Positions 39,142-60,310 of a stretch of DNA of 64,000 nucleotides are shown here, in pieces. Each line of letters opens with the position of its first letter. Positions within the stretch are counted from its first letter, which is position 1. The stretch covers positions 8,942-72,941 of the forward strand of contig JAVHLJ010000004.1 of the NCBI GenBank assembly GCA_031082205.1. Direction: 5' to 3'. Source of the stretch: Elusimicrobiales bacterium. GTDB taxonomy: Bacteria > Elusimicrobiota > Elusimicrobia > Elusimicrobiales > UBA9959. The translations under genes and the position numbers were made by a program. The notes beneath the pieces are model-generated. The model searched no databases, was not told the DNA's origin, and worked only from the letters and a program-made list of their open reading frames with translations.

Positions 39142-41643
39142 ATGAGAACTGCCTTTAAAAAAACTCGCTCTTCAGGCGGGGGATTCACGCTGCTGGAACT
39201 CCTGCTGGCCTCGGCCATCATGTCGATAGGCATACTCGGCATGGTCGCCTCTTTCCGCTATTTCAATGTCGGCATACAGAGCGCCAAGGGCCGGTCGCTG
39301 GCCAATAACCTGGCGCAGGAGAGGGTCGAATACCTTAAGAACCGCTCCTATTACCGGGTGCTGGTCACCACCGCCACGGCCAGCGACGATAATTTTTCCC
39401 CCGCGCTCACGTACGACCAGGCTCCCAACGGGGAGGAGGACCTGACCGTCGGCGGCATAAACTTCAAGCGCCGCGTTCATATCCGGAAGGTGAGCGAAAA
39501 TCCCGCCACGGGGCAGCTGGAGCACAAGAGCTGGAACGACCCGGATACCGGCCTCAAAGAAATATCGGTCTTCGTGACCTGGTTCGAGGGCGGGACCTGG
39601 AAGAAGACGGAACTGCGCAACCTGCTTGAGAACCCGGACCGCGTAAATCTCAGCGCCTCGTTCGCCGGCAATATCAAGGACGCGGCCTCGAGCGTCAATA
39701 TTTCCAGCGCGGTGGTGCGCGCCCAGGAGAACCCGTCGCGTTACGACTATACCGACGACGACGGGAATTATTATTTCGACATAGAGCCCGGCACCTATAC
39801 GCTGATGGCCTCCAGGGAAGGCTATTTTCTCAAGACCCGCCCGACCGAGGTCATCGCGGAGGGGGATTCTCTCGCCGCCCGCGACTTCCTGCTGACGCGC
39901 ATGTCCAGCGGGACCATAACCGGTACCGTCTACAAGCGAGACCACATGGTGGTCTACATGGTGGTGGGTTCCACGGTGATGGTCAACGGGGACGATATAG
40001 AGTTCGTCTCCCTCTACAATCCCACCACGGCCGCCATGGACGTGGCGGCGGCCGCGGGCAACAATATAAAACTCGCCTATCACGGCGAGAGCGGCCTCGG
40101 CCGCGACGTGAACGAGTTCGCGCTGAACTATATCTCGACCTATGTCCCGGCCGGCCACTATTTCCTGATAGCCAGCTCGGGCTCCTTCACCTACAAGGGG
40201 CACGCCGTCACGGCCGACGCCGTTTACGCCCCTTCCAACTCGCCGCCCTGCTCCTCCGTCGGCTCTCTCATGAACTGTATCCGTACGGGCGAGGCCGGTT
40301 CGGTGAGGATACGGGACTCTTCCGGCGGCGTCATAGACACCCTCGGCTGGAATAATTCCTCGACCGGCAAACTGCCCCAGTATTACGAGGGGACCTACAA
40401 GACCGCGGCCAACGGCATAGAGGTGAACGGCCAGTTCTTCCGCTATACCGCCCCCGGGTCCGGCAGCGAGGGAGCGGGCAGCTGCTACGATACCGACGTC
40501 AACAGCTCCAATTTCTTCTATTTCTCCTCCGCCATTTTCCGGACCATGTCCACCGCTTCCGGCTACAAGGCCCCGGTAACCGGAACACCGGCCGCCGGGG
40601 CCGTCGTTTTCGCCGAGGACGGGCTCTCCTCCGCGGTAACGGCCAATTCGGCCGGCTATTTCAATCTCAAGAGCGTGGCCACCGGCTACTGGACGGTGTA
40701 CGCCAGCAGCGGGCCGCTTATGATCAGTACCGGCCCGGTGGGCGGCGCTTCAGCCAGCTTCTCCCACTCCGTCGGGAATCTGGTGCTTTCCTCGGACACG
40801 CTGTACGGCTATGTGACCGGCCGGGTCACCGACGTTAACGGCGTTCCGATGCCGAACGTCAGGATGTACGCCGGCGGCGCCCTCGGCTACACCGGCGCCG
40901 ACGGGCGCTATACGATAACCGCCCCCGAGGGCTCGGCGAACGTGGTGGCCAATTACCAGACCCACGACCCGGCCTATATCGAGTATTCCTCCATGGGCGT
41001 CGTCATAGCGGCCGGCGGCGTCGCCGATCCCCCCGTGGATTTCACCCTGATGCAGGGCGGCCGGCTGACCGGCTGGGTGACCACCAACGGCGTGGACCCG
41101 CTGCCCAACGTGCCGGTCATCGCGCTGAAGAACGGGGTGGAACAGGGCAATACCGTGACCGGCTCCGACGGTTATTTTACGGTCTGGGGCGCCGGGATCT
41201 CCACCGGCACCTACGAGGTGATACCCAAGCTGGAAGCCGGGGAGGCGTCCTCGCCCTCCACCCACACCATTACGCTTTCGGCCGGCGAGACCCTTTTCGT
41301 CGGCACCTTCACCGTCACCGGCGCAATGGGCTACATCGAGGGCTCGGTCGCCGCCGGGGCGGCGCCCATAACCACCGGCGTGCTGATATACGCCACCACC
41401 GGCACCATCACATCCACGCCGCCGACGCTGGACAGCTCGCTGCGGTCCGGCGTCGTGGCCTATTACGCGGTCTCCTCCGACGCCGCGGGCAGTTACCGGC
41501 TCGCCGTGCGCGGCGGCTATTCCTACAATGTCTACGCCTGGTATACGGCGTGGAGCGGGGAAACCCCGTCCACATCCAGGCTCGATCATTCCGGCGTGGC
41601 CGTTACGCCCGGGGGAACGGTGACGAGGGATTTCTCATGGTGA
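39142..41643 (+). CDS. PilV-like prepilin fused to carboxypeptidase-regulatory-like Ig domains and a lamin-tail-like domain
   Basis: GG|FTLLELL class III signal; repeated G.ITG.V.D..G.P motifs; EFVSLYNPT. Confidence 0.8.
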   Translation: MRTAFKKTRSSGGGFTLLELLLASAIMSIGILGMVASFRYFNVGIQSAKGRSLANNLAQERVEYLKNRSYYRVLVTTATASDDNFSPALTYDQAPNGEEDLTVGGINFKRRVHIRKVSENPATGQLEHKSWNDPDTGLKEISVFVTWFEGGTWKKTELRNLLENPDRVNLSASFAGNIKDAASSVNISSAVVRAQENPSRYDYTDDDGNYYFDIEPGTYTLMASREGYFLKTRPTEVIAEGDSLAARDFLLTRMSSGTITGTVYKRDHMVVYMVVGSTVMVNGDDIEFVSLYNPTTAAMDVAAAAGNNIKLAYHGESGLGRDVNEFALNYISTYVPAGHYFLIASSGSFTYKGHAVTADAVYAPSNSPPCSSVGSLMNCIRTGEAGSVRIRDSSGGVIDTLGWNNSSTGKLPQYYEGTYKTAANGIEVNGQFFRYTAPGSGSEGAGSCYDTDVNSSNFFYFSSAIFRTMSTASGYKAPVTGTPAAGAVVFAEDGLSSAVTANSAGYFNLKSVATGYWTVYASSGPLMISTGPVGGASASFSHSVGNLVLSSDTLYGYVTGRVTDVNGVPMPNVRMYAGGALGYTGADGRYTITAPEGSANVVANYQTHDPAYIEYSSMGVVIAAGGVADPPVDFTLMQGGRLTGWVTTNGVDPLPNVPVIALKNGVEQGNTVTGSDGYFTVWGAGISTGTYEVIPKLEAGEASSPSTHTITLSAGETLFVGTFTVTGAMGYIEGSVAAGAAPITTGVLIYATTGTITSTPPTLDSSLRSGVVAYYAVSSDAAGSYRLAVRGGYSYNVYAWYTAWSGETPSTSRLDHSGVAVTPGGTVTRDFSW

Positions 41644-42146
41644 AGAAAAGGCCGGGCTACACGCTGATGGAGCTGATGCTGGTGGTGGCCATCCTGGGCG
41701 TGCTGACGCTGGGGGCGCCGCAGCTCTTCACCCGCGTCTACCAGTTCGTCCGCCTTACCATGGCCCGGGCCGAGATACAGAAGAACGCGCGCGAGGCCCT
41801 CTCCAACGTCAACCGCGAGCTGCGCCAGGCCGTCGCCACTTCTGTCGTCATAGACCAGGTCAGCGGCCAGCCGCCGCATTCCAGGATAACCTTCGACTAC
41901 TACAAGTCCGACGGCACGGTGGAGCAGATGTCCTACTACCAGAGAGGCAGGCAGCTTTTCCAGGCCAGGCAGGGCGCCGCGGAGGGAAGGCTGGTAGCCG
42001 ACAGCCTGCGCTACCTGGCCTTCAGCTACCCCCGCACCGACGACGACACGATAATATCGCTTTCGGTCACTTTCGAGAAAGACACTTACGAGGGCGGGAC
42101 CAAGGCCCTCCAGATGGCGGTGGAAAAAGTGAGGATAATGAATTGA
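41637..42146 (+). CDS. PilW/GspJ-like minor pilin
   Basis: PG|YTLMELMLVVAILG class III signal with E5. Confidence 0.85.
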   Translation: MVKKRPGYTLMELMLVVAILGVLTLGAPQLFTRVYQFVRLTMARAEIQKNAREALSNVNRELRQAVATSVVIDQVSGQPPHSRITFDYYKSDGTVEQMSYYQRGRQLFQARQGAAEGRLVADSLRYLAFSYPRTDDDTIISLSVTFEKDTYEGGTKALQMAVEKVRIMN

Positions 42147-43582
42147 GGCCATACTTGACTACGATGCGAGGGAAGATCGCCGGGCTGGCCCGGCGCGCCG
42201 GCAGGGGGCAGATGGCCATAGTGATGGTGCTGGTCATCCTTCTTTTCCTGCTGATAATGATCCCGGTCATAGAGATGTTCGTGCGCAACGAGGCGGTCTG
42301 GACCGTCAAGGAAAAGAAGAACACCACGGCCTTCCACCTGGCCGAGGCCGGCGTGGACAGGGCGTACTGGAAGCTCATCGAGAAGCAGGATAATTTCAAG
42401 GACATAACCGAAGGAGCGGTCATCCCCGGCTACGCCGACGACGTGGAGTACGCCGACATAGAGGGCGGCGTGTACAAGATCAACATGACCGTCGGCGACA
42501 CGAACACCAAGGTCCAGGTCATAGCCACCGGCAAGGACGTCTCCTCCAAGGAGTTCCGGGCCATAAAGGCCGTCTTCTCCAAGGCGGCGATAGACGCCGC
42601 GCTGCAGGCGCCGTCCATCTCCGGCGCCGGCAACGCCAATATACACTGGGGCCCCGTCATGTCCATGAGCGGCATGAACCTGGCCGGCGGCGCCAACGAG
42701 CTTTACCCGCGCAAGTACGCCCGCGGCGCCATAACCGCCTCCGGCGGCTACCCGGACAGGGACACCGACCCCAACGCCCCGAACAAGGGCCCTTATACGA
42801 ACAATGTGAAGACCGAGTGGTGGTCCTATAACGAGCCGCCGGGCGTGCCGGACATACTTACACCGGACACTTCCCACTACGCTTCGCTGGCCCAGGCGCA
42901 GGGCTACTATTACCCGAACGCCAGCTACACCATGAACAATGTCGTGGATACGGTTTGCACGGTAGGGGCCAATCCCAAGGTGCGTTTCTTCCAGGGCAAC
43001 GTCACTTTCGGCGGCAGCAAGTATTTCTGCGGCATACTGATAGTGATGGGCAATCTCACCTTCAGTTCCGGCGGCAGGCGGCCGGAAGGCGAAGTTACCG
43101 TCACTCCTCCGGCCAACGCCTGGCAGGAATACCAGCTGAACGTTCCCGTCCATTCGGGCGCGTCCTCGGGCGGGGCGATGGATTCCTGGACCTACGAGGC
43201 CGCCGGCGTGCATCCCGGCGCCTGCGGCGGCGGGCCGCACGGCGACACGGCCGCCGTGGACGAGTACCCCGGAGACGCGGGCTATCACACGGTCAGCGAC
43301 TACAACTTCTATACCTGCAGGGTCGCCTCCGGCCATTGCGGACTCGGCAATAACGCTACCGCCGGCCGCCGCGAGCTTTCTTTCAAGGGTTACATATACG
43401 CGGCCAACGGCTTCACCGGCAGCGGCTCTACCAGGATATTCGGGGCCGTGCACGTGGCTCAGGGCGCGGCCTTCAGCGGCGGCGGCATGGATATCTTCTA
43501 CGACGACAATCTGAACGTCCGCTTCCTCAACGACAATATCCGGCGCGTCAGCTGGCATGAAGTGCGGCCGACCGAGTTCTGA
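42143..43582 (+). CDS. PilX/GspK-like minor pilin with a large C-terminal domain
   Basis: TTG start in a TTGA overlap; GRG|QMAIVMVLVILLFLL (no E5); AFHLAEAGV. Confidence 0.75.
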   Translation: MRPYLTTMRGKIAGLARRAGRGQMAIVMVLVILLFLLIMIPVIEMFVRNEAVWTVKEKKNTTAFHLAEAGVDRAYWKLIEKQDNFKDITEGAVIPGYADDVEYADIEGGVYKINMTVGDTNTKVQVIATGKDVSSKEFRAIKAVFSKAAIDAALQAPSISGAGNANIHWGPVMSMSGMNLAGGANELYPRKYARGAITASGGYPDRDTDPNAPNKGPYTNNVKTEWWSYNEPPGVPDILTPDTSHYASLAQAQGYYYPNASYTMNNVVDTVCTVGANPKVRFFQGNVTFGGSKYFCGILIVMGNLTFSSGGRRPEGEVTVTPPANAWQEYQLNVPVHSGASSGGAMDSWTYEAAGVHPGACGGGPHGDTAAVDEYPGDAGYHTVSDYNFYTCRVASGHCGLGNNATAGRRELSFKGYIYAANGFTGSGSTRIFGAVHVAQGAAFSGGGMDIFYDDNLNVRFLNDNIRRVSWHEVRPTEF

Positions 43583-44366
43583 GCCGGCCCCCTCCGGCCT
43601 GGGCCTTTCCCTGGCCGGCCGGCGTTTCGGCTTCGCCTTCGATACCGCCTCTTTCGCCGCGGCCATGTCCCGGCGTTACGCCGCTTTCCTGGCCCCGCCC
43701 CCGGCCGGCACGGTGGAGGTGCGGGCCGGGGGTCCCGTCCGGCCGCCCTTCCTTCCGCGCGTTTCGGGCTGGCCTCTCATATCGGGCCGGCGCGGCGACT
43801 TCGGGTTCTCCTTCGACGCCGTTTCCGGTTCAGGCCGCGCCGTGGTCTCGCCTCGGGCCCAGAGCTTCGATTCTTTCCTGCGGACTCTCTGCTCGGCCCT
43901 GCTCAACGGGAGCGGCGGCGCGCTGGTACACGCCTGCGGGCTTGCCGTGAGCGGACGGGCCCATGTGTTCATCGGCCGCAGCGGGGCCGGCAAGTCCACC
44001 CTCGCGCGGCTGGCCGCCGCGGCGGGAGCGGAAGTGATAAGCGACGAGATCGTTCCGCTGCGCCTTGAGCGCGGGCGGTTCTACGTTCACGGCTCGCCTT
44101 TCTGGGGCGAGCTGCGCTCGGCCGGCCGGCCGCTGCGGCTGCCGCTGGGAGGGATATACGCGTTGCGTAAATCCCGGATAAATTCCCTTCGCGCGGGGCC
44201 CGTCGCCGGCTTTATCCCGCTTTTCATGCGCTGCTCCCTGAATTTCTCCAAAGAGCCTGCCGCCTCCTCCGGCCTGCTGGACGCCGCCGCCCGGGCCGCG
44301 CGGCTCTATAAGGGAGCCTTCTCCTTCTCCAAAAAGAACGCCTCGTTCCTGCGGCTGCTGAAATGA
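43557..44366 (+). CDS. HPr-kinase-like P-loop protein (ScmC-like, RiPP cassette)
   Basis: VHACG, GRSGAGKST Walker A, ISDE, HGSPFWGE; start uncertain (alternative ATG 43665). Confidence 0.75.
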   Translation: MKCGRPSSEPAPSGLGLSLAGRRFGFAFDTASFAAAMSRRYAAFLAPPPAGTVEVRAGGPVRPPFLPRVSGWPLISGRRGDFGFSFDAVSGSGRAVVSPRAQSFDSFLRTLCSALLNGSGGALVHACGLAVSGRAHVFIGRSGAGKSTLARLAAAAGAEVISDEIVPLRLERGRFYVHGSPFWGELRSAGRPLRLPLGGIYALRKSRINSLRAGPVAGFIPLFMRCSLNFSKEPAASSGLLDAAARAARLYKGAFSFSKKNASFLRLLK

Positions 44367-44641
44367 TTTATAATCAAAGCATGGGGTGGAAGCCTAAAAA
44401 GGGCCTGGCGCACAGGGAAATAGACGGGGCGGTCTACATCGTGGACGCGGCCGGCTCGCGCCTGCACCGTCTAAACGAGACCGGCTCTTTCATCTGGAAG
44501 TCTCTGGCCGCCGGCCGCCCGCGCGCAGGGATAGCCGCAGCCCTGGCCGACGAGTTCGAAGTTGACGGGCCCGCCGCCGAAGCCGACGCGGAAAGTTTCA
44601 TCCGGGAACTGGAAAAAGCCGGATTGCTGGAAGAACGATGA
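44363..44641 (+). CDS. PqqD-family RiPP recognition element (RRE)
   Basis: REIDGAVYIVD, LNETGSFIW, LADEFEVD, FIRELEKAGLL; alternative start ATG 44381. Confidence 0.9.
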   Translation: MIYNQSMGWKPKKGLAHREIDGAVYIVDAAGSRLHRLNETGSFIWKSLAAGRPRAGIAAALADEFEVDGPAAEADAESFIRELEKAGLLEER

Positions 44642-44775
44642 AGAAAAAACGCAAGTATTCAAAGCCGGCGATGAAGACGGAGAGGGTGTTCGAGACCGCC
44701 GCGCTCGCCTGCGGCAAATGCCAGAGCGGTCCTACCGGCCAGGCGGCCTGCAAGACGCTCAGGCGCTGGTCCTGA
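44638..44775 (+). CDS. 45-aa RiPP precursor peptide MKKKRKYSKPAMKTERVFETAALACGKCQSGPTGQAACKTLRRWS (absent from the ORF track)
   Basis: ATGA overlap with the RRE gene; stops 1 nt before the peptidase ATG; YxxP-type leader motif; three Cys in the core. Confidence 0.85.
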   Translation: MKKKRKYSKPAMKTERVFETAALACGKCQSGPTGQAACKTLRRWS

Positions 44776-44776
44776 A

Positions 44777-45121
44777 ATGCCCGTCGGCCGGGAACCGAAA
44801 GCGTTCCGCCTGGAAGGGAGCAGCATGCGGCCCCTGTTCCGGGATGGCGATACCGCGCTGGTGCGGCGGGGGCGGCTGCGGCGCGGCGACTGCGCGGTAT
44901 ACCTGGCCGGCGGCCGGACGCTGCTGCACCGGGTAGCCGGTTTCGCCGGTGAGCGGGTAGTCCTGCGCGACGACGGCTGGGAGACTCCGCCGCACGCGGT
45001 CCACCCAAGGAACATCGTCGGACGCGTCGTATCCGGCAATCCCCTAAAGAGCGGGCTGCCCGGTTACGCCTGGTTCCTCGCCCGCGGCCTGTTGAAATGG
45101 TTCAGAAAGAATCCCTGTTAG
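44777..45121 (+). CDS. S24/S26-family peptidase (RiPP cassette)
   Basis: GSSMRPLFRDGD (Ser nucleophile), LLHRV, RDDG. Confidence 0.8.
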   Translation: MPVGREPKAFRLEGSSMRPLFRDGDTALVRRGRLRRGDCAVYLAGGRTLLHRVAGFAGERVVLRDDGWETPPHAVHPRNIVGRVVSGNPLKSGLPGYAWFLARGLLKWFRKNPC

Positions 45122-46137
45122 CCGGGCTTAACCGCGCTTCCCTTGAAAAGAACATCCCCCTGACGGCGGTCGTCGAGCTGACGCGCCGCTGTCCCCTCTC
45201 CTGCGTCCATTGCTGCCTGCCGGAGACCCGCGGCCGCGCCGAGCCCGGCCGCGAATTGACCGCCCGGCAATGGCTGAAAATTTTCAAAGAGCTGGCCGGG
45301 CTGGGCTCCATGAACCTGGTGCTGACCGGCGGGGAGCCGCTGCTGCGGCCCGATCTTCCCGCAATAGCGGCCGGCGCGGCGGACCTGGGTTTCGGCGTGA
45401 CCGTGTTCACCACCGGCCTCCCCGCGGCGCCGGCCCCGCTGCGCGCGCTGAAAAAAGCCGACGTCTCTTCCTTCGAGCTCAGCCTCTACGGCCGCCCGGC
45501 GGCGCATGACGGGATAACGGGGCTGAAAGGATCGCAGCGGCGCACGCTGGCCGCCGCCCGGCTTATGCGGCGGCTGGGTTTCAAAGTGAAACTGAAATGC
45601 CCGCTGATGTCGGTGAACGCGGGCGAGGCTTCATATATCATGAGAACGGCGAAGAAATCGGGCTTTGAATTCTCCTTCGATATCTCCATGGCCCCCGGGA
45701 ACGACGGCGAGCGGACCCCGCTGTCCCTGAAACTGCCGGATAAGCGACTGAAGCGATTGCTGGGCCTTCCGACCCTGCGGCCGGAGCCGAATACGGAAGG
45801 CGGGGCGGGGGACCTGATCTGCGGCGCCGGGCGCAATACCGTCGCTTTCGCCCCGGACGGAACGGTCTATCCCTGTCTTCAATTGCCGCTGCCCCTCGGC
45901 AATGCCGTGAAGACCCCTCTGTGCCGTATCTGGAAAGGTTCCGGACGGCTCCGCTGGTGGCGTTCCCGGCGCCGGCGGAATATAGAAAAATGCCGTTCCT
46001 GCCGCCTCTGGGATATCTGTTCGCGCTGCCCGGGGTTGGCCCTGCTGGAGGACGGCGACATGATGGGCCCTTCCGCGCAGGCCTGCCGTTCGGCGGCCAT
46101 AGCCGGCCGTATCTTCAAAAAACGGCTGGGGAGGTAG
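45097..46137 (+). CDS. Radical SAM/SPASM peptide maturase
   Basis: CPLSCVHC, LTGGEPL; SPASM CGAG...PDG.VYPC...CRSCRLWDICSRCPG...C. Confidence 0.9.
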   Translation: MVQKESLLAGLNRASLEKNIPLTAVVELTRRCPLSCVHCCLPETRGRAEPGRELTARQWLKIFKELAGLGSMNLVLTGGEPLLRPDLPAIAAGAADLGFGVTVFTTGLPAAPAPLRALKKADVSSFELSLYGRPAAHDGITGLKGSQRRTLAAARLMRRLGFKVKLKCPLMSVNAGEASYIMRTAKKSGFEFSFDISMAPGNDGERTPLSLKLPDKRLKRLLGLPTLRPEPNTEGGAGDLICGAGRNTVAFAPDGTVYPCLQLPLPLGNAVKTPLCRIWKGSGRLRWWRSRRRRNIEKCRSCRLWDICSRCPGLALLEDGDMMGPSAQACRSAAIAGRIFKKRLGR

Positions 46138-46150: not shown

Positions 46151-46183
46151 TTGACATCGCCGGGCGGGGTGCTATACTATAAT
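46151..46183 (+). promoter_or_regulatory. sigma70 promoter upstream of the Rrf2/adhesin operon
   Basis: TTGACA-N16-TATACT with a TGn extension; an overlapping TATAAT at 46178. Confidence 0.7.
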
Positions 46184-46189: not shown

Positions 46190-46276
46190 ATGGACGGCGC
46201 CCGCCGCGGGCGCTCTTTTTTGGGTTTTTCATCGGACACCGCCTATCCAATGGACTTCTTATGCCCGTCAAAATGA
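46190..46276 (+). CDS. Possible 28-aa leader peptide MDGARRGRSFLGFSSDTAYPMDFLCPSK
   Basis: ATG 6 nt after TATAAT; spans the hairpin; its TGA overlaps Rrf2 ATG 46273. Confidence 0.3.
   Translation: MDGARRGRSFLGFSSDTAYPMDFLCPSK
46197..46221 (+). terminator. Terminator-like hairpin in the 5' leader of the Rrf2 operon
   Basis: GCGCCCG-CCG-CGGGCGC followed by TCTTTTTT. Confidence 0.6.
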
Positions 46277-46659
46277 ACCGCACCCTCGCCTATGGGCTGG
46301 CCTGCCTGGATCACCTGGGCCGGAACAATGGCGGACAGTGGAACCAGGTTACCGATATCTGCCGCTGCCAGGGCCTGCCTGTCGCCTACTGCAACAAGGT
46401 GCTGCAGGCTTTGGTCCACGCGGGCCTGGTGGAATCGCAGAAGGGCAGGGGCTACCGGCTCAACAAGGAACTCGATGACATCAGCGTCTGGGACCTGATG
46501 GAGGCCTTCACGCTCAACGGCGCGCCGAAAGCGGAGCGGGCCGAATCCGCGGGCAAGCTTTACCGCAAGCTGAAGGAGCGGGTCGACCATTGGCTGGTCG
46601 GCCTGACCGTGAAGGACATCGTGGAGATGGTCAAAGAAGAGGAGGGCGGCGGGGATTGA
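46261..46659 (+). CDS. Rrf2-family transcriptional regulator
   Basis: YGL.CL..L, wHTH, KVLQALVHAGLVESQKGRGYRL, ISVWDLMEA; alternative start 46273. Confidence 0.85.
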   Translation: MPVKMNRTLAYGLACLDHLGRNNGGQWNQVTDICRCQGLPVAYCNKVLQALVHAGLVESQKGRGYRLNKELDDISVWDLMEAFTLNGAPKAERAESAGKLYRKLKERVDHWLVGLTVKDIVEMVKEEEGGGD

Positions 46660-52600: not shown

Positions 52601-55600
52601 TACCGCGTGGTCTCGTCCACGGCCCCGGACCCGCTGTCGCCGGCGGGGGCGCTGGCCGTCAGTTCGCTGACCTACAACACTGCCCTGAGCACGGCCGGGC
52701 TGTCGGCCGACACCACCTATTATTTCCGCGTGGCCGGCGTGAACAAGAACGGGGTCCTTACGGCTTACACGGCGCCGGCGGGCACGGCGACGCTGCTGGG
52801 CTTCGCGCCCGTCTTTGCTGGTTTCAGCGGCGTGGCTGAAGGCGCCATGCAGTTCGGCTGGTCGCATAACGGCAACGCGCCCGGCACGCTCTACCGCGTG
52901 GTCTCGTCCACGGCGCCGGACCCGCTGTCGCCGGCGGGCGCGGTGGCCGTCAGTTCGCTGACCTACAATGTCGCGCTGACCACGGCGGGGCTGTCGGCGA
53001 ACACCACTTATTATTTCCGCGCGGCAGGCGTGAACAAGAACGGGGTCCTTACGGCTTACACGGCGGGGGCCGGAACCTCCACTTTGGCGAATGCGCCGAC
53101 CGGACTCTACGAGACCGGCGTCACCAGCTATACGGTGCAGCTCAACTGGTCCGGCTCCGGCAACGGCCCGGCCGCGCTCTACGAGGCCCGTGTTTCTCGG
53201 GCGGCTGACCCGCTGGACCCAGGGGGATTCCCGGTCACTTCCTCGGCGACCTACAACCTTTATTTTTCCACCGCCGGGCTCGCGCCCTCTACGGCCTATT
53301 ATTTCCGCGCCAGAGCGCTCAATAACAACGGCGTCTATACGGCCTGGACGGACCCGCCTTACCGCGTGGATACGCTGGGCGCGGACGAGATCGGCAGCCC
53401 GGCCTCGGGCGAGATCTCGGGCGTGCATGTCAGTTCGCTGGCCGCGACCTGGTCGCTGGTCTCCGGCGCCACGGGCTATACGCTGGCCGCCTCGTTGTCC
53501 CCGGATAACCCGCCTCTGTCCATAGAGGCTTCCAGCGAGACCGTGAACAACGGGTCTTACGCCCAGGTTCCGGGGCTGGCCGCCGATACGGTATACCATC
53601 TCTTTGTGCGGGCCAACGGCCCGGGCATTTCCGGCGACTGGTTCGCTTTCCCGGCCCGGGCCACGCTGCTGGAATTCCCGCCGGCCTTCGTCTCCTTCTC
53701 GGGCGTCGCGGCCGGCTCGGCGCGGTTCAATTTCTCGCTTAACGGCAACGCGGCCGGCACGCTGCACCGGGTGCTGGTCTCAACGGCGCCCGACCCGCTC
53801 TCGCCCGGCGCGGCGGCTTTCAGCTCCTCGGACACCTACAATGTCGCGCTGACCACGGCGGGGCTGTCGGCCGATACCACCTACTATTTCACGGCGGCGG
53901 GGGTGAACAAGGACGGCGTGCTCACGGCCTATGCCGCCGTACAGGCCACGGCCACGCCGGCCAATATCCCGGTCTTCGCCGGCTTTACCGGCGTCGGCGC
54001 GTCGGAACTGACGTTCAACTGGTCGCGCAACGGCAACCGCAACCCCGGCACGCTTTACCGCGTGCTGGTCTCTACGGCGCCGGACCCGGCCAGCCCCGGC
54101 GGCGCGGTGTTCACCAGTTCCGAGACCTATAACCTGCACCTGACCACGGCGGGCCTGTCAGCGGACACCACTTATTATTTCCGCGCCGCGGCGCTGGGCG
54201 TCAACGGCCTCTCCACGGCCTATTCGGCGGCGGCGGGCACGGCCACGCTGGTAGCCTACCCGCCGGTATTCGCCGGCTTTACCGGCGTCGGCACGGGCGC
54301 GATGCAGGCGAACTGGTCGGCCAACGGCAACCGCGATCCAGGAACGCGCTATCGCGTCCTGGTCTCTACGGCCGCTAACCCTTTGAGCCCGGCCGGGGCC
54401 GTTGTGACCAGTTCCGAGACTTTCAACCTCTACCTGAGCAGTTCGCCGCTGACGCCCAATTCGACGCGCTACTTCATGATCGCGGGCGTCAATCATAACG
54501 GCGTCCTGACGGACTGGACCGCCGTCGCCGGCACGGCCACCCTCGCTAATATCCCTCTGACGGCCGTCTCCACTTTCAGCGCGGTCACCTCCGGCGGCTT
54601 CAGCGCGGCCTGGGCGGCCAATGGCAACCCGGCCGGCACGCTCTACCAGGTGCAGGTCTCCACCGCCCAGGACTTCAATCCCGGCGCGCACGGCCAGACG
54701 GCCTCCACGGCTCCGGCGGACGGCTACTCCTACGCCTTCAGCGGCCTGCTCTCCAACCGGGATTATTATTTCCGCGCGCGCGCTCTCAACCATAACGGCG
54801 TCTACAGCGATTACGCGCAGCTCGGCTCCACGCGCACGCTCGGCCTCTCCGCGCCGTCCGTGCTGCCGGTCACCCAGGTTTCCACCTTCTCCATAACCGC
54901 GTCCTGGACCCTGATTGCCGGGGCGACGGGCTATACGCTGGCCGCCTCGGAAGATTCCGGCGTCGAGCCTTCGTCCGTTTACGCCTCCAGCGCGACGGTC
55001 GGGACGTCGGCCGCGGTGTTCAGCCCGGCCCTCGCTCTCAACACCACTTACTACCTGTTCGTCAGAGCCGGCGGCCCCGGCGACTCAAGCCCCTGGGCCG
55101 TCTACCCCGCCACCTCGACGCTCGCCAATACGCCGACGGCGCCGGGCTCCCCGTTCGGCAGCGTTACGGATAACGGCTTCACGCTCAGCTGGGGGGCCAA
55201 TTCCAATCCGCTGGGAGACACGCTGTACACGGTGCAGGTCTCGACCGCCGTGGATTTCAACTCCGGCGTGACCAACCAGCTGACGCTGACCACGGCGCCG
55301 GCCGGCGGCCCCATGGCGACTTTCAGCAGCCTGAGCAGCGATACCTTCTACTACGCCAGGGTCAGGGCGCATCACAACAACGGCAACTTCACCGACTGGG
55401 TGAGCCTGGGCAACGCCAAGACGCTGATCCTGGCCGAACTGCACGAGGCCGGCGACGGGGTGCTGTTCTACGGTCAGAGCGGCAACAGCACGCCGCAGTT
55501 CAGGGACTATGTCTACGCTTCCAATTCGTTCAGCTCCGTCCGCCAGACCATAACGGGCGCGGCCGGGCGGCTTTTCACGATAAGGACCAACCCGCTGACC

Positions 55601-58600
55601 ACCAAGCAGGAGGCCGTGGCCGCCTATGTGCGCGACGGCACGCTGCGCGTGCTCTGCACCGACGGCGCCAACTGGTACGAGGAGTGGACGCAGACCGTCG
55701 GCGGCACCGACGGCACGCGCCGTTTCGACGTGGCCTTCGAGACCGCCAGCGGCGACGCCGTTGTGCTGTACTCGCGCAATGTTTCGGGCGCGAACGAACT
55801 CGGTTACCGCACCAAGCCCGGTTCCGCAGCATGCGGTTCGGCCAACTGGTCTTCCGCGCAAACGCTGGACCCCGTCCGCACCTCCGGCGTAGTGCAATGG
55901 GTCAGGATGGCGCCCGACCGCCGGGCGGACCGCGACCATGTCGCGGCCATCTGGGCCGACGCCAATTCCGCGCTTTCGGCCATGGTCTGGAACGGCGCCG
56001 CCTGGGAGAACGAGCCGTCCGCGGCGCTGGAGACCTCGTTGGAGACGGCCGCGGCCGCGCAGGACGTGGAAAGCTTCGCCGTGGAAACCGAGTCTCTTTC
56101 CGGGGACCTCATGGTCATCTGGGGGCATAGCGGCGGCACGGACGGGATCAACGGCGTGCGCTACGCCACGGCGGCTTTTACCGGCGGCAGCCCGGCGCAC
56201 GCCTGGGGCGGCGTCGTCAACGCGCCGGCTTTCCTCGACGACGCCACGAACCTGGACCTGGCCGCCAACCCGGCCACCGACGAGCTGGTCTTCGCCTCGA
56301 TAGGCAACGCGGGCTCCGACCTGCAGGCCGGCTACTGGAACGGCTCGGCCTGGACCAATACGGCCAACCTCGACACAACGGCGCAGACGCCGGCGGCCGG
56401 CAACAAACTGGTGGCCGCCGCCTGGATAAGCTCCGGCACGGCCACGCGCAGCGTCATAGTCTACAACGACGCGGCCGCGACGAACGTCGGCTGGTACACG
56501 GGCAACGCCGGCGTCTTCACGGCCCAGACCGATTTCACCCCGGCGCCGGCCTTCGCCAACCCGCAGCGCTATTACGGCCTGCAGCAGGACCCGGTGCACC
56601 GCGACAGGCTGATGCTGACCGTGGCCGACGCCAACGCCGACCTGTTCGCCAAGCGGCTGGTCATGACCGCCGCGGCGGCCTTCACCTGGACCAACGCGGA
56701 CGGCGGCGCGGCGCTGGAGACCAATCTCGGCTCCGCGCTGGCCGGCGGCCACGCCTTCGTCTTCTGGCCGGCCCCGCCGACCACCACTTTCGAGGCTAGC
56801 GCCCACCGGTTCTACGCCAATACGGATTCGACGGACGTCGGAATTCCCCTGGCCGCGCAGGACGCGCTGGCCGTGCTCCCCTCTTCCGGCTCGGCTTTCC
56901 GCCTGCGCCCGCTGGTCACCATAGGGCAGGTGGACCTGCCGCAGTCCGGCCAGAGCTTCAAGCTGCAGTTCGCGGGGCAGGGTTCCGGCACCTGCGCTTC
57001 CCCGTCCGGCGGCTCGCCGGCCTCCTGGACCGATGTCACGGCCGTGACGGCGGTGGCCTTCAACGATAATCCCTCCCCGGCGTCCGGGGCCCCGCTGACG
57101 GCCAACGCCGCCGACCCGGCCTACGGCGTGCAGGCCAATCTGAACCAGACCTACGCCGAGGCCGGCGGCTTCTCCAACTCCGTCTCGGGCGTGGCCCGCA
57201 ACCGCAACGCGATGTGGGACCTGGCGCTAAAAGACAACGGCATGGCGCCCGGGGCCGTCTACTGCCTGCGCCTGGTAAAGAGCGACGGCGTTCCGCTCGA
57301 GTTCTACACCTCTTATCCGCGCGTGGCCGCTCCGTCGGCCGTAGTTCTCAACGAGGTCTATCCCGCCGGGGCCTCCTCCTCCGCGGACTGGGTGGAGCTT
57401 TACAATAATTCGCACAGCACGGCGCCGCTGCTGGGCTGGCGGCTGGAATACGTGGAGAACACGATAGCCCTGGGAGGCTCGGCCAATACCGTCTGGACCG
57501 GGGGGGCGGACCAGTTCGTCAACGCCCTCTCCACTTTCCTGGTCAGCGGTCTGTCCGCGGACCTCAACGGCGCCCAGGGTTATCACGTGCGGCTGCTGGA
57601 CGCCTCGGGCGCGCTCGTCGACCGCGCGCAGTGGCCGGCCGGACTGACCGCCGGCCAGTCCTTCGCCAGGATAAGCGACGGGCATCCGGACTATTTCGAG
57701 ATAGACCCGACCCCTACGCCGGGATATTTCAACTCCGTCTCCACCGACGCCCTTCATATCAACGAACTGGCCTACGGCGACGCCATATCGGAGTTCGTCG
57801 AGCTTTACAGCCTCGACGCGGTCTCCACCCGCGCCCTCACCGGCTACTCTCTGCGCAACGCGGCCTCTTCGGCCGCCGGAAAGGTCTTCCGTTTCGACAG
57901 GCGCGTCTACCCGCTGGACTTCACGGCGCTGGACGGCTCCTCGCTCAGCCGCGACGGCCTGACCTGGACGCAGGTCTTCGGCGCGGAGGGACTGGCGGCC
58001 GCGGGCGACTTCCTGGCGCTGGAGAACTCGACGGGCGCCGTGGTGAGCCGCGTGACCTGGCAGTCCGGGTCCGCCTACAGCCGCTACAATTACGCCGCCC
58101 AGCTCGTGCCTTACGCCAACCCGGCTCCGGCCAACGCCGTTCACTCCATAGCGAGGGGGCCGTCGGAGGGCGCTCATTCCGGAGTGGATTCCGCGGACTT
58201 CAGCGCCTCGGCCGCGACGACGCTGGTATCGCGCAATAATAACGCCGGGACGGGCGCCGCCAACGCGCTGTATTATCCGGACCCCTCGTCTTCCGTGCGC
58301 CACCTGTCGCGCTATTTCCCGCTGCGGCTGACGCTGGGCGCGGACGCCTCGGCCGGCCGGGGAAATAATATCGTGCTGTCGCGCCGAGGCGGGACGGCCG
58401 ACCCCGGCTCGCCTCACATCTACCGGCTCGAGGATATCGGCTTCAGCCTGTCGTCCCTGCTGGAGCAGGCCACGGCGCAGTTCGGCCTGTCCTTCCCGGA
58501 CCAGGACGGCAATTCCCTCGTGAACGGGAGCTGGTACAGGCTGGTCCTGAACTCCGACACAGGCTCCGCCTCCGCGCCGCAGGTCGTCATCGCTTCGGCC

Positions 58601-60310
58601 GCCTACGACGCCTCGGTTCATTCGGCCTCGGCCGCCGGTCCGGCCGGCTATACGCTCATCAACGACGATACGCGCAGTTCGGCGCTGCGGCTGGAGGTCT
58701 CCAATAATTCGCCGGCGGGTTTCAACGGCGTGGAGATAGCCACAGTGTCATTCCGCCTGTACGACGCGGACCTCGCCGCGCCTCTGACCGCCGCCGGGGC
58801 GGCGGCGCTTTTCGACGCCATTGCGCTGGTGGCCGACAGCACCCATACCGGCCTCTCCGGCACCTATGAGCCGGCCATAGACCTGGCCACGGCCGCCTGG
58901 GTGCCCATGTCCTCGATAACCCTCGACGCCGACGGCCGTTCCACTCTGACCGTCCCGACGGCCGGCCTCGGAGCCTCCTTCGTCGCGGCCGGTTCCACGC
59001 GGCCCTTCTACATCGTTTTTGTCACGACCCGGAACGCTTCGTCGAAGTCGCCGGACACTTTCCGCGTCCGGTTCGACCCCTCCTCCGGGGTGAGCGTGCG
59101 CGACGCCTCCGGCCTGCTGGTCCAGGACTTCGTTCCCGGCGCGCAGGTGGACACGGCCTCGTTCACCGTCATAGCCCCGGCCCTGCCGCCGCCGGACACG
59201 GATTGGCCCTACGTAAGCGAGTCTTCCGCGCCTATAACGGGCGGCGTAATGTCGTGGGTGGGCGCGCCTCTGGACGAGGGCAGGCTCTACCTGCCGTCCA
59301 GCGACGGCACCGTGGTCGCTTTGAGCACGACCGGCGCGCTCAGGTGGGCCTTCACCACCTCGCCGCTTACTTCCGTAGGGGCGACGCCGTCCTTTCCCGC
59401 CAAGGAGGGCGCGGAGCTCTACCTGTACTTCACCGGCGCCAACGGCGACGTCTACAAGATCGAGGATGAGGGGGGTTCGGTCCGCCAGGCCTGGAAAGTC
59501 CCGCTCGGCGCGGAGGCCGTATCCATCCTGGACACCGACGCCAGGGTGTACGTGCCCACCGTAGACAAGAGAATTCATTGCCTCAACAAGTCGGACGGTT
59601 CGGCCTGCTCCCCCTGGGCCTTCTCTTCGGCCCTGACCGGCGTGCCGTCCGGCACCCCGTCGGTGGACGAAAGGGCCACGGTCGCCACGGCCTGGATAGG
59701 CCTTGAGGACGGCAAGGTCGTCAGTATAAAGACGGGTGACGGTACTTCCGACACCGCCTTCCAGGCCGGCGGCCCCATCAGGTCGTCGCCCTACCTGGAC
59801 GCCTATGCCGCCAGTCCCGACAACGCCCTCTACATAACTTCCACGGACGGCCGTATCTACGCGCTTAATTCCGGCAATATGACGAAGGTGGACACCTGGG
59901 AGCACTACGACACGTTCTCTTCGATACACACCTCTCCCTTCGTCTGGCCTCTGGGCGGGACCAAGTATGTCTTCTTCGGCGCGGACAACGGACGACTGTA
60001 TAAGCTGAACGCCGCCACCGGCGATCTGGTCTGGTCCTTCCAGGCCGGCGGGGCGATAAGGTCTTCGCCGGTAGTGGTACCGTCCAATTTCGAAGGGCTC
60101 GGCCTGGCCGAGGGCGAGGATTACGTCTATTTCGGCTGCGACGACGGGAAGATATACGCCGTCAACGGCAATACGGGCGCGATCAGGACGGGTTGGCCGG
60201 TCTCCACCGGGGGGGCCGTCCGCGCGGACCCGGTCTACGACCCGGACTCCAAGACCATTTCCGTGGGCTCCAATGACGGCAGGCTGTACACTCTGTACGT
60301 GGGACCGTGA
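46664..60310 (+). CDS. Giant secreted surface protein/adhesin (4548 aa): two copies of an unknown domain, about 26 FN3-like repeats, propeller-like region, two lamin-tail domains, C-terminal PQQ/BamB-like propeller
   Basis: Signal peptide; recurring W..N.NP.GTLYRV..STAPDP...L..DTTYYFR; VVLNEVYP and LHINELAY; YFG.DNG.LY / W.F.AGGAIRSSP blades. Confidence 0.9.
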   Translation: MSPAGIKRSVPRGGLRGLPAALFFLLLPALAPRAAAQTTVYLSDTVSPINPGADDERRLNRLRGAAAVTYTKATMAGPVTPPTSATQMTKISGGTPMVWYTDPLDAVTIGGNITFNFWARESHNQANAGLTGELWRASGSGALLELIAAVHDVSLSELGTTLSAQNWVRTPAPTALANGERLSLRLYIDDAGGTMTSGRFVEFTLDGPTAGASGDSWFRTAEALAPARPVVGSVTGLTQTGFSASWTLVEGATGYTLAVSPNPGNPPSPISASLSASDNSGAFSSLTSNTTYYPFVRTNGPGASSSWSAYPVQVTPAYAPSFSNFTNVSSHTARFNWNANGNHAATLYHVVMSTAADPLSPFGAPVTSSFTYNTFLSSSGLLANRSYSFRVAAVNHGGVYTSYTSVVSTYTLAGQPAAGLFSGVSETGVTASWTDGGNPSGTLYRLFVSTAPDPLSPLGAAFSEHETYNLSFSTAGLAPNTTYYFRAAAVNGDGAATLYFSAASTATLAAAPVFSAFGSETSSSLSFSWNGGGNPAGTLYRVLSSTAADPLSPSGARVASSDTYNLSLSSAVLVPDTRYYFRAAAVNRNGVLTAYSAPEGRATLLAAAPAAPAFGAVSETGIGFSFSANGNAYPGTLFRVLSSTAPDPANPGGAAAVSSDTYNNSLALSGLVPNATYYFRAAGVNKDGVLTAYTAIAGTSTLAAAPSGLVFTETTQEKVRLEWAASNGPGTLYTVRVSTAPDPLAPGGAVVTSSDTYNLYLSTEGLAYSTEYFFRVRAVNNNGILTAWSAIASTTTLAPGTLAAPLAGELEPHVSSMTAAWSLVVGATGYTLAAALSPDNPPAVFASSTVLAQAYAQVAGLVPDTVYYLFVRANGPGLASAWNPYSPAATRLQYAPAFGSFTGTAADSISLSWTAANPAGTLYRVVSSTAADPLSPAGAAVVSSDTYNLSLSSAGLTANTAHYFRIAGVNKDGVLTAWTAARGTSTLAAQPVFSGFSGTGTSAITFDWTAAGNPAGTLYRVLSSRAPDPLNPGGQPVVSSDTYNLSLSTAGLSPNTSYYFMAAAVNNDGVLTAFSAPQVNPTLPEDAAFPGFGTITDSSVDFMWSGGANPSDTLYRVLVSPAPDPLNPGAEPVTSSDTYNLYLSSAGLGVDRDYHFIVAALRRGGQPGAWTSPERAHTLSRQPVFSGFGTVSAGAIEAQWSANGNPAGTLYRVAVSPAPDPLDPGAEPVTTLESYGLSVSSAGLAADTTYYFRVAAVNGDGVATAYTAPRGTATLVSYPPLFQGFSDLQTDAIRVLWGPNSNAEGTLYRVAVSTAPDPLAPGGAAVTYEDTYELSLASSGLRTNTLYYFRLAAVNKNGVATVYTSTQSERTLQSVTKLYLRDTVSAANPAGDSGEERRLSTVRGAASVTYTKATLSGTVTPPTSATQFTRASGGAVQTWYTYPLGAVTIVSSVTFNLRAWESAAQANAAVTAVLYRTDSAGVVISTVATALIPRTELGTGDAAQTWSREPAPTALAEGDRLALRVYIDDGDGVTMASGRSVYMSIDGPTANAPGDSWVQLLEELRPASPAALTVTGVTASQMSASWPLVAEATGYTLISSVEPGGDPVYSSSRTLGNLSAALASPSMAANTTYYLFVRSEMEGASGGWRSHPATATLLAFSPAFSGFGPVAAGSIRFDWSHNGNPAGTLYRVLSSTAPDPLSPGGAAVSAALTYDTFLSSSGLSADTTYYFRVAGLNHGGVPTAYTAAAGTATLLAYAPAFSAFSGVGQTSMQFEWSHNGNAPGTLYRVVSSTAPDPLAPGGAVAVSSLTYNTFLSTAGLSANTTYYFRVAGVNKNGVSTAYTLAAGTATLAYAPVFGSFTGVSAAAVSLSWTSGGNPAGTLYRVLSSTAPDPASPQGAVAASSDTYNLSLSSSGLAADTTYYFRVAALNRGGVPSAYTVPAGTATLLGFAPVFSGFADVAAGSMRADWSHNGNAPGTLYRVVSSTAPDPLSPAGALAVSSLTYNTALSTAGLSADTTYYFRVAGVNKNGVLTAYTAPAGTATLLGFAPVFAGFSGVAEGAMQFGWSHNGNAPGTLYRVVSSTAPDPLSPAGAVAVSSLTYNVALTTAGLSANTTYYFRAAGVNKNGVLTAYTAGAGTSTLANAPTGLYETGVTSYTVQLNWSGSGNGPAALYEARVSRAADPLDPGGFPVTSSATYNLYFSTAGLAPSTAYYFRARALNNNGVYTAWTDPPYRVDTLGADEIGSPASGEISGVHVSSLAATWSLVSGATGYTLAASLSPDNPPLSIEASSETVNNGSYAQVPGLAADTVYHLFVRANGPGISGDWFAFPARATLLEFPPAFVSFSGVAAGSARFNFSLNGNAAGTLHRVLVSTAPDPLSPGAAAFSSSDTYNVALTTAGLSADTTYYFTAAGVNKDGVLTAYAAVQATATPANIPVFAGFTGVGASELTFNWSRNGNRNPGTLYRVLVSTAPDPASPGGAVFTSSETYNLHLTTAGLSADTTYYFRAAALGVNGLSTAYSAAAGTATLVAYPPVFAGFTGVGTGAMQANWSANGNRDPGTRYRVLVSTAANPLSPAGAVVTSSETFNLYLSSSPLTPNSTRYFMIAGVNHNGVLTDWTAVAGTATLANIPLTAVSTFSAVTSGGFSAAWAANGNPAGTLYQVQVSTAQDFNPGAHGQTASTAPADGYSYAFSGLLSNRDYYFRARALNHNGVYSDYAQLGSTRTLGLSAPSVLPVTQVSTFSITASWTLIAGATGYTLAASEDSGVEPSSVYASSATVGTSAAVFSPALALNTTYYLFVRAGGPGDSSPWAVYPATSTLANTPTAPGSPFGSVTDNGFTLSWGANSNPLGDTLYTVQVSTAVDFNSGVTNQLTLTTAPAGGPMATFSSLSSDTFYYARVRAHHNNGNFTDWVSLGNAKTLILAELHEAGDGVLFYGQSGNSTPQFRDYVYASNSFSSVRQTITGAAGRLFTIRTNPLTTKQEAVAAYVRDGTLRVLCTDGANWYEEWTQTVGGTDGTRRFDVAFETASGDAVVLYSRNVSGANELGYRTKPGSAACGSANWSSAQTLDPVRTSGVVQWVRMAPDRRADRDHVAAIWADANSALSAMVWNGAAWENEPSAALETSLETAAAAQDVESFAVETESLSGDLMVIWGHSGGTDGINGVRYATAAFTGGSPAHAWGGVVNAPAFLDDATNLDLAANPATDELVFASIGNAGSDLQAGYWNGSAWTNTANLDTTAQTPAAGNKLVAAAWISSGTATRSVIVYNDAAATNVGWYTGNAGVFTAQTDFTPAPAFANPQRYYGLQQDPVHRDRLMLTVADANADLFAKRLVMTAAAAFTWTNADGGAALETNLGSALAGGHAFVFWPAPPTTTFEASAHRFYANTDSTDVGIPLAAQDALAVLPSSGSAFRLRPLVTIGQVDLPQSGQSFKLQFAGQGSGTCASPSGGSPASWTDVTAVTAVAFNDNPSPASGAPLTANAADPAYGVQANLNQTYAEAGGFSNSVSGVARNRNAMWDLALKDNGMAPGAVYCLRLVKSDGVPLEFYTSYPRVAAPSAVVLNEVYPAGASSSADWVELYNNSHSTAPLLGWRLEYVENTIALGGSANTVWTGGADQFVNALSTFLVSGLSADLNGAQGYHVRLLDASGALVDRAQWPAGLTAGQSFARISDGHPDYFEIDPTPTPGYFNSVSTDALHINELAYGDAISEFVELYSLDAVSTRALTGYSLRNAASSAAGKVFRFDRRVYPLDFTALDGSSLSRDGLTWTQVFGAEGLAAAGDFLALENSTGAVVSRVTWQSGSAYSRYNYAAQLVPYANPAPANAVHSIARGPSEGAHSGVDSADFSASAATTLVSRNNNAGTGAANALYYPDPSSSVRHLSRYFPLRLTLGADASAGRGNNIVLSRRGGTADPGSPHIYRLEDIGFSLSSLLEQATAQFGLSFPDQDGNSLVNGSWYRLVLNSDTGSASAPQVVIASAAYDASVHSASAAGPAGYTLINDDTRSSALRLEVSNNSPAGFNGVEIATVSFRLYDADLAAPLTAAGAAALFDAIALVADSTHTGLSGTYEPAIDLATAAWVPMSSITLDADGRSTLTVPTAGLGASFVAAGSTRPFYIVFVTTRNASSKSPDTFRVRFDPSSGVSVRDASGLLVQDFVPGAQVDTASFTVIAPALPPPDTDWPYVSESSAPITGGVMSWVGAPLDEGRLYLPSSDGTVVALSTTGALRWAFTTSPLTSVGATPSFPAKEGAELYLYFTGANGDVYKIEDEGGSVRQAWKVPLGAEAVSILDTDARVYVPTVDKRIHCLNKSDGSACSPWAFSSALTGVPSGTPSVDERATVATAWIGLEDGKVVSIKTGDGTSDTAFQAGGPIRSSPYLDAYAASPDNALYITSTDGRIYALNSGNMTKVDTWEHYDTFSSIHTSPFVWPLGGTKYVFFGADNGRLYKLNAATGDLVWSFQAGGAIRSSPVVVPSNFEGLGLAEGEDYVYFGCDDGKIYAVNGNTGAIRTGWPVSTGGAVRADPVYDPDSKTISVGSNDGRLYTLYVGP
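51650..53090 (+). repeat. High-identity intragenic tandem repeats with a 288-291 bp period
   Basis: TCGCATAACGGCAA at 51701, 51992, 52571 and 52862 with near-identical flanking sequence. Confidence 0.85.

Follow-up and report, generated by a model that had tools for sequence, protein, structure and literature searches.

The window, as we call the whole 64,000-nucleotide stretch analysed here, comes from an Elusimicrobiales bacterium (assembly GCA_031082205.1, contig JAVHLJ010000004.1, positions 8,942 to 72,941 of the forward strand). Its G+C content is about 66%, and the public loci closest to it are found in Elusimicrobiaceae and Elusimicrobiales metagenome-assembled genomes (MAGs). The subject of this analysis is a gene cluster in which three pilin-like genes, encoding 833, 169 and 479 amino acids (aa), are followed by a five-gene cassette of the ribosomally synthesised and post-translationally modified peptide (RiPP) type, a gene for an Rrf2-family regulator and a gene for a giant protein of 4548 residues. 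All open reading frames (ORFs) on the + strand between 39142 and 63516 were located where the initial annotation had placed them, and the gene order that it reported, pilin-like trio, RiPP-type cassette and giant, was confirmed. Every junction from the 833-aa gene through the radical SAM (rSAM) gene is either an overlap or a gap of 1 nucleotide (nt). The arrangement was found again in at least nine related genomes, and is not due to chance. The features of the cluster are listed here by position in the window.

39142–41643, + strand: 833-aa modular prepilin-type protein, PilV/GspI-like at its N-terminus only, with N_methyl, four CarboxypepD_reg matches and a weak LTD match
41637–42146, + strand: 169-aa prepilin-type protein, PilW/GspJ-like (N_methyl, E=3.2e-6); 7-nt overlap with the 833-aa gene
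42143–43582, + strand: 479-aa membrane-anchored PilX/GspK-like protein, third of the trio; alternative starts at 42164 or 42212
43557–44366, + strand: 269-aa ScmC/HprK-related P-loop kinase-like protein; 26-nt overlap with the pilX-like gene
44363–44641, + strand: 92-aa PqqD-family leader-recognition protein (RiPP recognition element, RRE; PF05402, E=2.6e-16)
44638–44775, + strand: 45-aa precursor peptide MKKKRKYSKPAMKTERVFETAALACGKCQSGPTGQAACKTLRRWS, previously unannotated; its ATG overlaps the PqqD stop codon
44777–45121, + strand: 114-aa S24/S26-type (SipW/archaeal-like) peptidase without an N-terminal membrane anchor (Peptidase_S24, 7.5e-6)
45097–46137, + strand: 346-aa radical SAM/SPASM peptide maturase (Radical_SAM 7.8e-20, SPASM 4.1e-11)
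46151–46180, + strand: near-consensus sigma-70 promoter, TTGACA-16 nt-TGcTATACT (11/12 positions, extended −10)
46196–46222, + strand: GC-rich hairpin with a T run, just 3′ of the promoter (terminator scan)
46230–46252, no strand assigned: imperfect palindrome CATCGGACA-N5-TATCCAATG, likely the Rrf2 operator
46261–46659, + strand: 132-aa Rrf2-family transcriptional regulator (PF02082, 3e-17)
46664–60310, + strand: 4548-aa secreted giant protein with many fn3 repeats, LTD and a C-terminal PQQ/BamB-type beta-propeller (Pfam, PDB sequence search)

Judged by its gene content, the cassette is a genuine RiPP-type one of the ScmC/PqqD/rSAM-SPASM kind: a short, coupled precursor ORF with conserved leader and core lies beside genes for a PqqD/RRE protein and an rSAM/SPASM protein. 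The kinase gene overlaps the 3′ end of the pilX-like gene, as had been claimed; its ATG at 43557 sits 26 nt before the stop codon (43580–43582) and is the sole canonical start ahead of the conserved part of the kinase. With NCBIfam the kinase-like protein matched HprK_rel_A and HprK_rel_B at E values of about 1e-5, below the cut-off, and a homologue bears the Pfam family PF27840 (ScmC) in precomputed annotation. An AlphaFold2 (AF2) model of the protein had a pLDDT of 94, and the top Foldseek matches were PEP carboxykinase (1e-6) and HPr kinase 1knx (5.6e-5). PEPCK_ATP matched six of 24 family members, and a profile search of the family against PDB returned P-loop matches only. The P-loop reads GRSGAGKST, of the GxSGxGKS/T type, with G140, G145 and K146 invariant. 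The modelled fold is thus of the HprK/PEPCK type, and the kinase activity is putative.

The best NCBIfam match of the PqqD protein was the lasso-peptide PqqD chaperone (5.9e-12). The rSAM/SPASM protein matched both PF04055 and PF13186 and contains a CPLSCVHC motif; its best NCBIfam matches, PqqE, ScmE and GeoRSP_rSAM, were all below cut-off. Relatives of this enzyme outside the phylum, in a Myxococcales MAG and an Acidobacteria MAG (L003, L004), are accompanied by neither precursor nor cassette. The peptidase matched sigpep_I_arch (3.9e-4) and has conserved GxSMRP, LHR and DD motifs, which we take as typical of signal peptidases of the SipW/archaeal type. Neither immunity nor transporter genes were found in the cassette. 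A literature search found no publication on Elusimicrobia rSAM/RiPP systems, on the combination of HPr kinase, PqqD and rSAM, or on SynChlorMet.

The kinase was used as the query in a search of 300 other Elusimicrobiota genomes, and 20-kb neighbourhoods were read in 40. In what follows genomes are labelled G, loci L, genera g, families f and contigs within a genome C. Homologues of the precursor were present in 27 of the 40 loci examined, and the precursor is the most conserved part of the cassette; in L047, L048 and L055 it is 49–58% identical, where the enzymes are 28–40% identical. In an alignment of 25 sequences Y7, P10, E19, L23, C25, K27, C28, P32 and C38 are invariant, and Ser is the last residue of every full-length precursor. 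A small-x-small site (AALA|C) precedes the first Cys. A precursor more strongly conserved than its enzymes is not typical of fast-evolving bacteriocins. The precursor belongs to no curated family, and its few database entries are all described as ‘hypothetical’. The SCIFF model TIGR03973 (six Cys in 45 residues) gave E=0.81 and 9.7 bits against a cut-off of 50. The AALAC sequence was also considered as a lipobox; this was rejected, there being no hydrophobic signal segment ahead of the motif.

A kinase match was found in 63 of the 300 genomes. The full order GT-p200-trio-cassette-Rrf2-giant occurs in family f1, in genera g1, g2 and g6, and in g8 from a short contig. The usual order elsewhere is HD-GYP, kinase, PqqD, rSAM, precursor, peptidase and giant, and the fetched flanks of 20 of the 27 precursor-bearing loci contain no prepilin motif. 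The giants next to these distant cassettes share an N-terminal domain, RIKTVEYNFG, for which there was no Pfam match in the parts scanned. This domain was found in 29 of the 300 genomes, in one copy each, and all 29 have the kinase (naive hypergeometric p=4e-23); 20 of them have the giant within the cassette locus, on its downstream side. Peptidase and giant form a single reading frame in five loci (L047, L048, L059, L060 and L066), the peptidase part preceding the signal peptide of the giant, and at L051:12857–15571 the partner in the in-frame fusion is instead a 904-aa propeller protein of the BNR/Sortilin type, carrying a FlgD_ig tail. In G228 one contig carries the cassette and a different one carries Rrf2 together with a giant of more than 4055 aa. 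Two genomes of the window's own genus (G114 and G180, both 100% complete) keep S8, c12, GT, p200 and the trio, and have neither the kinase nor an Rrf2 ortholog. On this comparative evidence the link between cassette and giant is ancient and does not depend on pilins. The initial annotation had proposed to look for recurrence of trio, cassette and giant in relatives; the pairing of cassette and giant does recur, but the pilin block is unlinked in most. Its proposal that a modified peptide is tied to a pilus or surface complex survives in the same partial way: co-occurrence, adjacency and fusions connect the cassette with the giants, but the pilins are independent, widespread and persist without the cassette.

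Several further observations were made in these neighbourhoods. The longest open frames of the RIKTVEYNFG-type giants reach about 10,480 aa, and uninterrupted frames of about 9,200–10,480 aa were seen in G169:C38:43113, G119:C23:89284, G230:C55, G214:C35, G003:C33, G228:C11 and others. In G114 the place of the cassette, next after the pilX-like gene, is taken by a 439-aa ORF on the reverse strand (L076:9817–11136) that looks by eye like a transposase. In L043, L045 and L046 (G060, G118 and G156; genera g3 and g5) a kinase-like gene stands alone in another conserved neighbourhood, with no PqqD, rSAM or precursor gene within 20 kb and with a RIKTVEYNFG-type giant elsewhere in the genome. Outside f1, the gene immediately preceding the kinase gene encodes an HD-GYP-type (HD_5) protein of some 370 aa in L047–L050, L055, L056, L059–L062, L064, L066, L067, L069, L070, L074 and L075. 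The position of this gene hints that cyclic di-GMP signalling may be part of the system.

The 123-nt gap between the rSAM and Rrf2 genes contains the promoter, the hairpin with its T run and the palindrome. The promoter is conserved in L002, L036, L037, L039–L042, L052 and L084, the hairpin and T run are at the same position in relatives, and the relatives' palindrome is perfect at the same place (CATTGGATA..TATCCAATG). A promoter, a GC hairpin within about 15 nt and a palindrome lie upstream of every Rrf2-giant pair examined (L002, L036, L037, L039–L042, L052, L053 and L084), and all three are also kept in G228, where the Rrf2-giant pair is unlinked from the cassette. The Rrf2 ortholog precedes the giant in f1, L052, L053 and L084 (families f1, f5 and f12). 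The conserved promoter, hairpin and palindrome ahead of Rrf2 therefore predict two transcription units, one running from the pilins through rSAM and the other a self-regulated unit of Rrf2, the giant and a 1069-aa gene described below. The terminator-like hairpin directly behind the promoter is suggestive of attenuation or of a very short transcript. In this lineage the pilins and the cassette are plausibly co-transcribed, because the pilX-like gene and the kinase gene overlap. Inclusion of the giant in a shared unit is not supported: it has its own conserved promoter, hairpin, palindrome and Rrf2 gene, which accompany it even where it is unlinked from the cassette.

Giants in the corresponding place in L002, L036, L039 and L042 share 43–73% identity with that of the window. 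The fn3-type giant occupies the slot behind Rrf2 in the window, G256, G210, G054 and L002, and a RIKTVEYNFG-type giant occupies that slot in G220, of the same genus, and in G214.

The three pilin-like genes had been named pilV, pilW and pilX. The 833-aa and 169-aa proteins each carry a class III signal/N-methyl motif (GFTLLELL and GYTLMELM respectively) and match PF07963, which upholds the N-terminal pilin helix, but all the specific family models fall below cut-off. With NCBIfam the 833-aa protein scored 24.9 bits against TIGR02523 PilV (cut-off 52.2) and 18.1 against GspI (cut-off 44.35), the 169-aa protein scored 30.2 bits against GspJ (cut-off 64.85), and no specific PilV/W/X or GspI/J/K model reached its cut-off in any of the three. 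A profile of the 169-aa family, built from 12 homologues, matched pilin N-terminal helices only in PDB. The 479-aa protein has no N-methyl motif and gave no Pfam, NCBIfam or PDB match; the PDB profile search of the pilX-like family was also empty. PilX/GspK-type proteins often lack the N-methyl motif.

The genome of the window has four prepilin loci, one of which, on contig C11, is a secretin/T2SSE/T2SSF/pilin cluster (Secretin 1.9e-42, T2SSE 5.4e-126, T2SSF 2.7e-51, pilins). This secretin-ATPase-platform cluster is the only one in the genome, apart from a partial duplicate contig: C78:3–5956 repeats the ATPase-platform-pilin part of C11:2269–8246 with slightly different sequences; either the duplication is real or the MAG is heterogeneous in strain. 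None of the genome's other pilin loci has a large gene next to it. The pilX-like family was found in 108 of 301 genomes and 65 of 97 genera, always as third member of a trio, and partners of about 850 and 170 aa accompany it in the same trio on other contigs. The trio is conserved away from the cassette in L078–L083; linkage to the cassette is confined to genera g1, g2, g6 and g8, all of one family.

Within the genus the trio is 32–48% identical, compared with 71–93% for the flanking genes (L001:2707–7087 and L037:2145–6528 against window positions 39142–43582), and the trio of G256, from another genus, is closer to that of the window (50–68%). These values suggest that the pilins underwent allele replacement or diversifying selection. 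In L001 and L037 the peptidase and rSAM genes are separated by a 392-aa ORF, which in L037 encodes a DUF4143 ATPase. L037 further carries an IS200-like transposase, located after the pilX-like gene and ahead of the kinase. Insertions part these two genes in L001, L037, L039 and L041.

We consider it likely that the locus encodes a conserved modified-peptide system dedicated to giant adhesins, here operon-fused with an independent minor-pilin set. Three modules would be combined. The first, the minor-pilin-like trio, would presumably be assembled by the genome's single secretin/ATPase/platform machine on the other contig; the second is the RiPP-type cassette, and the third the operon, predicted to be under Rrf2 control, that encodes the giant surface protein. 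Cassette and giant operon would form one functional system conserved across the phylum, and the link between trio and cassette would be an operon fusion confined to a few genera of one family. The PqqD protein would bind the leader (YxKP) of the 45-aa precursor, the three invariant core Cys would be cross-linked by the rSAM/SPASM enzyme, the HprK/PEPCK-fold kinase would phosphorylate the invariant C-terminal Ser (Ser45), and the S24/S26-type peptidase, acting in the cytoplasm, would cleave off the leader after Ala-Leu-Ala (Ala24), leaving a 21-residue peptide that starts with CGKC. We infer leader binding, cross-linking, phosphorylation and leader removal because of the precedent of the lasso peptides: PqqD-type proteins read the YxxP leaders of their precursors, and HPr-kinase homologues phosphorylate the C-terminal Ser (PMC8498205). 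As the fused peptidases stand ahead of a signal peptide, a cytoplasmic position is predicted for the enzyme, and the AxA site of the peptide is its likelier substrate. The peptide probably serves the giant adhesin, via expression control or biogenesis, and is probably not an antibiotic. The chemistry predicted, if this is true, is an addition of 80 Da on Ser45, a loss of H2 per cross-link and cleavage after Ala24.

A number of observations weigh against a peptide system dedicated to giants and independent of the pilins. All the co-occurrence statistics ignore shared ancestry. The RIKTVEYNFG domain is absent from the window's genome, whose own giant is of a different fn3/LTD/propeller type, and the case for linking cassette and giant here thus depends on position and on the common Rrf2 control region. 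The independence of the pilins is not absolute: the overlap of the pilX-like and kinase genes is present in several genomes, and two genomes of the window's genus, G220 (L037:13110–17579) and that of L001 (11059–13894), have a further pilin-like trio between the rSAM and Rrf2 genes. In this second trio the first ORF has its N-methyl motif at residue 190–220, the second encodes a 280-aa prepilin and the third a 429-aa anchored protein. Members of the pilX family were found in 38 of 49 cassette genomes and in 69 of 251 others (naive p=6e-11, uncorrected for phylogeny). There is no exporter among the cassette genes, and the peptidase might process the giant protein instead of the peptide.

A more far-reaching reading is also conceivable, in which a phylum-wide, cross-linked peptide of 21 residues, phosphorylated at its C-terminus, is the obligatory partner of adhesins of about 4,500–10,000 residues, as signal, cofactor or biogenesis factor, and the pilus tip has also been recruited to form one adhesion apparatus in this genus; we regard this as rather unlikely. 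The peptide was also considered as a PQQ-like cofactor for PQQ-type propellers. This was rejected as the main idea, since scans of 2,657 and 3,395 residues of the phylum-wide partner giants revealed no propeller. PQQ_2-type repeats need not bind PQQ.

Alternatively, pilins and cassette might be functionally coupled in the four genera without any mimicry of PilY1, the trio forming an alternative pseudopilus tip of a single machine resembling a type II secretion system (T2SS) or type IV pilus (T4P); the trio would help to export or display the giant or the mature peptide, and its fusion into the operon of the cassette would be explained by this role. The single secretin-ATPase-platform cluster with its partial duplicate contig would suit such a role, as would the missing exporter, the translational coupling of trio and cassette, and the two trios that flank the cassette in G220 and L001. 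The pilin alleles and the giant that most resemble those of the window are found together in G256, and the naive co-occurrence of pilX family and cassette is significant. Most cassette-giant pairs, however, have no pilins nearby, 11 of the 49 cassette genomes have no pilX-like match, 69 genomes with the pilX family have no cassette, and the insertions described above lie between the pilX-like gene and the kinase in four loci; moreover, the covariation of pilin allele and giant type comes from very few genomes. Coupling of this kind has, in our estimation, a low probability.

The initial annotation had gone further, proposing that PilV, PilW and PilX form a pilus tip, that the giant replaces PilY1 as the tip adhesin and that the modified peptide controls or assists assembly. 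The order of pilV-W-X, cassette and giant in four genera is in keeping with this, as are the overlap of the pilX-like gene with the kinase gene, the lack of an adjoining large gene at the other pilin loci and the second trio beside Rrf2 and giant in G220 and L001. The giant also ends in a beta-propeller, as had been noted, but the likeness to PilY1 does not hold. The C-terminus matched PF13570 and PF13360 (PQQ-like; PQQ_2/Beta-prop_ACSF4) in Pfam, with no match to PF05567 at E≤0.01 over the 4548 residues. A PDB sequence search with the C-terminal 448 residues matched PQQ-like/BamB-type propellers, and PilY1 was not among the matches; a single-sequence AF2 model of the same segment had a pLDDT of 46. 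A search of the window's genome for PF05567 gave no match, a result that is uninformative since 14 control genomes were silent too. The giant is separated from the pilins by five genes, a promoter and Rrf2, in what is predicted to be a separate, self-regulated unit. Nor are giant and minor-pilin operon inherited together: in most loci the cassette has a giant after it and no pilins, most of the phylum has cassette and giant without adjacent pilins, the trio is mostly on other contigs, and the pilins persist in the congeners G114 and G180 without cassette or Rrf2. The type of giant swaps within the genus though the locus stays. From these sequence comparisons the giant is very unlikely to be a stand-in for PilY1, and we give the tip-adhesin proposal as a whole little credence.

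That the cassette makes a stand-alone antimicrobial or signalling RiPP with no functional tie to its neighbours, synteny reflecting inheritance only, seems least credible of all: Cys-rich rSAM-modified peptides are often bacteriocins, and some cassettes (L044, L049, L050 and L085) have no adjacent giant, but the co-occurrence with giants in 29 of 29 genomes, adjacency in about 12 families, six independent peptidase fusions, the joint loss of cassette and Rrf2, the very strong conservation of the precursor and the lack of immunity or transporter genes all speak against it.

The system proposed here, a modified peptide dedicated to giant adhesins, resembles several known ones. An HprK-related P-loop protein, a PqqD-family protein and an rSAM/SPASM enzyme likewise occur together in the SynChlorMet (Scm), GeoRSP and HPr-rel-A cassettes (TIGR04248-04251, TIGR04302-04304 and TIGR04352-04355). 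The Scm models scored far lower than their cut-offs (ScmD 17 bits against 100, ScmE 79.7 against 400), ScmC was not listed at E≤0.01, and only the broader, precomputed Pfam ScmC family covers the kinase-like protein. Unlike all three, the present cassette has a single rSAM, a peptidase of the S24/S26 type and a precursor family (45 aa) of its own, and it is strictly associated with giants. We know of no function for the Scm system.

Phosphorylated lasso peptides of the paeninodin type also employ an HPr-kinase homologue and a PqqD-type RRE that reads a YxxP leader (PMC8498205), and the C-terminal Ser that is phosphorylated there (PMC8498205) is invariant here, where its phosphorylation is predicted. 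Unlike the lasso systems, the cassette has no Asn-synthetase-like cyclase and no transglutaminase-type B2 protease; rSAM/SPASM and an S24/S26 peptidase are found instead. In SCIFF peptides (ranthipeptides), too, an rSAM/SPASM maturase is paired with a Cys-rich precursor that is some 45 aa long and widely conserved in a single phylum, and the CGKC...ACK core resembles SCIFF. The precursor differs from SCIFF in having three Cys rather than six, and the cassette in having a separate RRE protein and, in addition, a kinase and a peptidase. As in tapA-sipW-tasA, an S26B-like peptidase (GxSMxP, HR, DD) is encoded beside a major surface protein; here it is sometimes fused to it. In contrast to that system, the peptidase has no N-terminal anchor, and in the fusions it stands before the signal peptide.

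The trio has the three overlapping genes of fimU-pilVWXY1 and GspI-J-K, and a gene for a large secreted propeller protein lies a few kb downstream. Unlike in fimU-pilVWXY1, the first pilin is an 833-aa modular protein, and five cassette genes, a regulator and a promoter intervene between trio and giant. The locus thus carries a caution, that a gene order resembling pilV-W-X-Y1 can arise from juxtaposed independent modules.

As judged by these comparisons, the precursor family and its association with giant adhesins are new, and the association is strongly supported. RiPP cassettes are usually interpreted as producing antibiotics or signals. A nearly invariant precursor tied to proteins that are among the largest in bacteria points instead to a housekeeping role in making or controlling giant adhesins, and would provide a first functional context for uncharacterised pairs of ScmC/HprK-related and PqqD genes.

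Two further genes flank the cluster.

38439–39041, + strand: p200, a 200-aa secreted helical protein, conserved in the family as upstream neighbour; no Pfam or NCBIfam match
60307–63516, + strand: 1069-aa protein with an N-terminal PQQ-type propeller (PQQ_2, 8.7e-29) and a weak domain of the type IX secretion system (T9SS) type at its C-terminus

The p200 gene is syntenic in L001 and L036–L042, and in L044, which has no pilins, it lies directly upstream of the kinase. The C-terminal domain of the 1069-aa protein matched Por_Secre_tail at 1e-4 and 23 bits, under the cut-off of 27, and the GTG start of its gene overlaps the stop codon of the giant. Within positions 60307–63998 of the window, an ORF from 63411 onward matches UPF0164 (PF03687, 6.2e-5).

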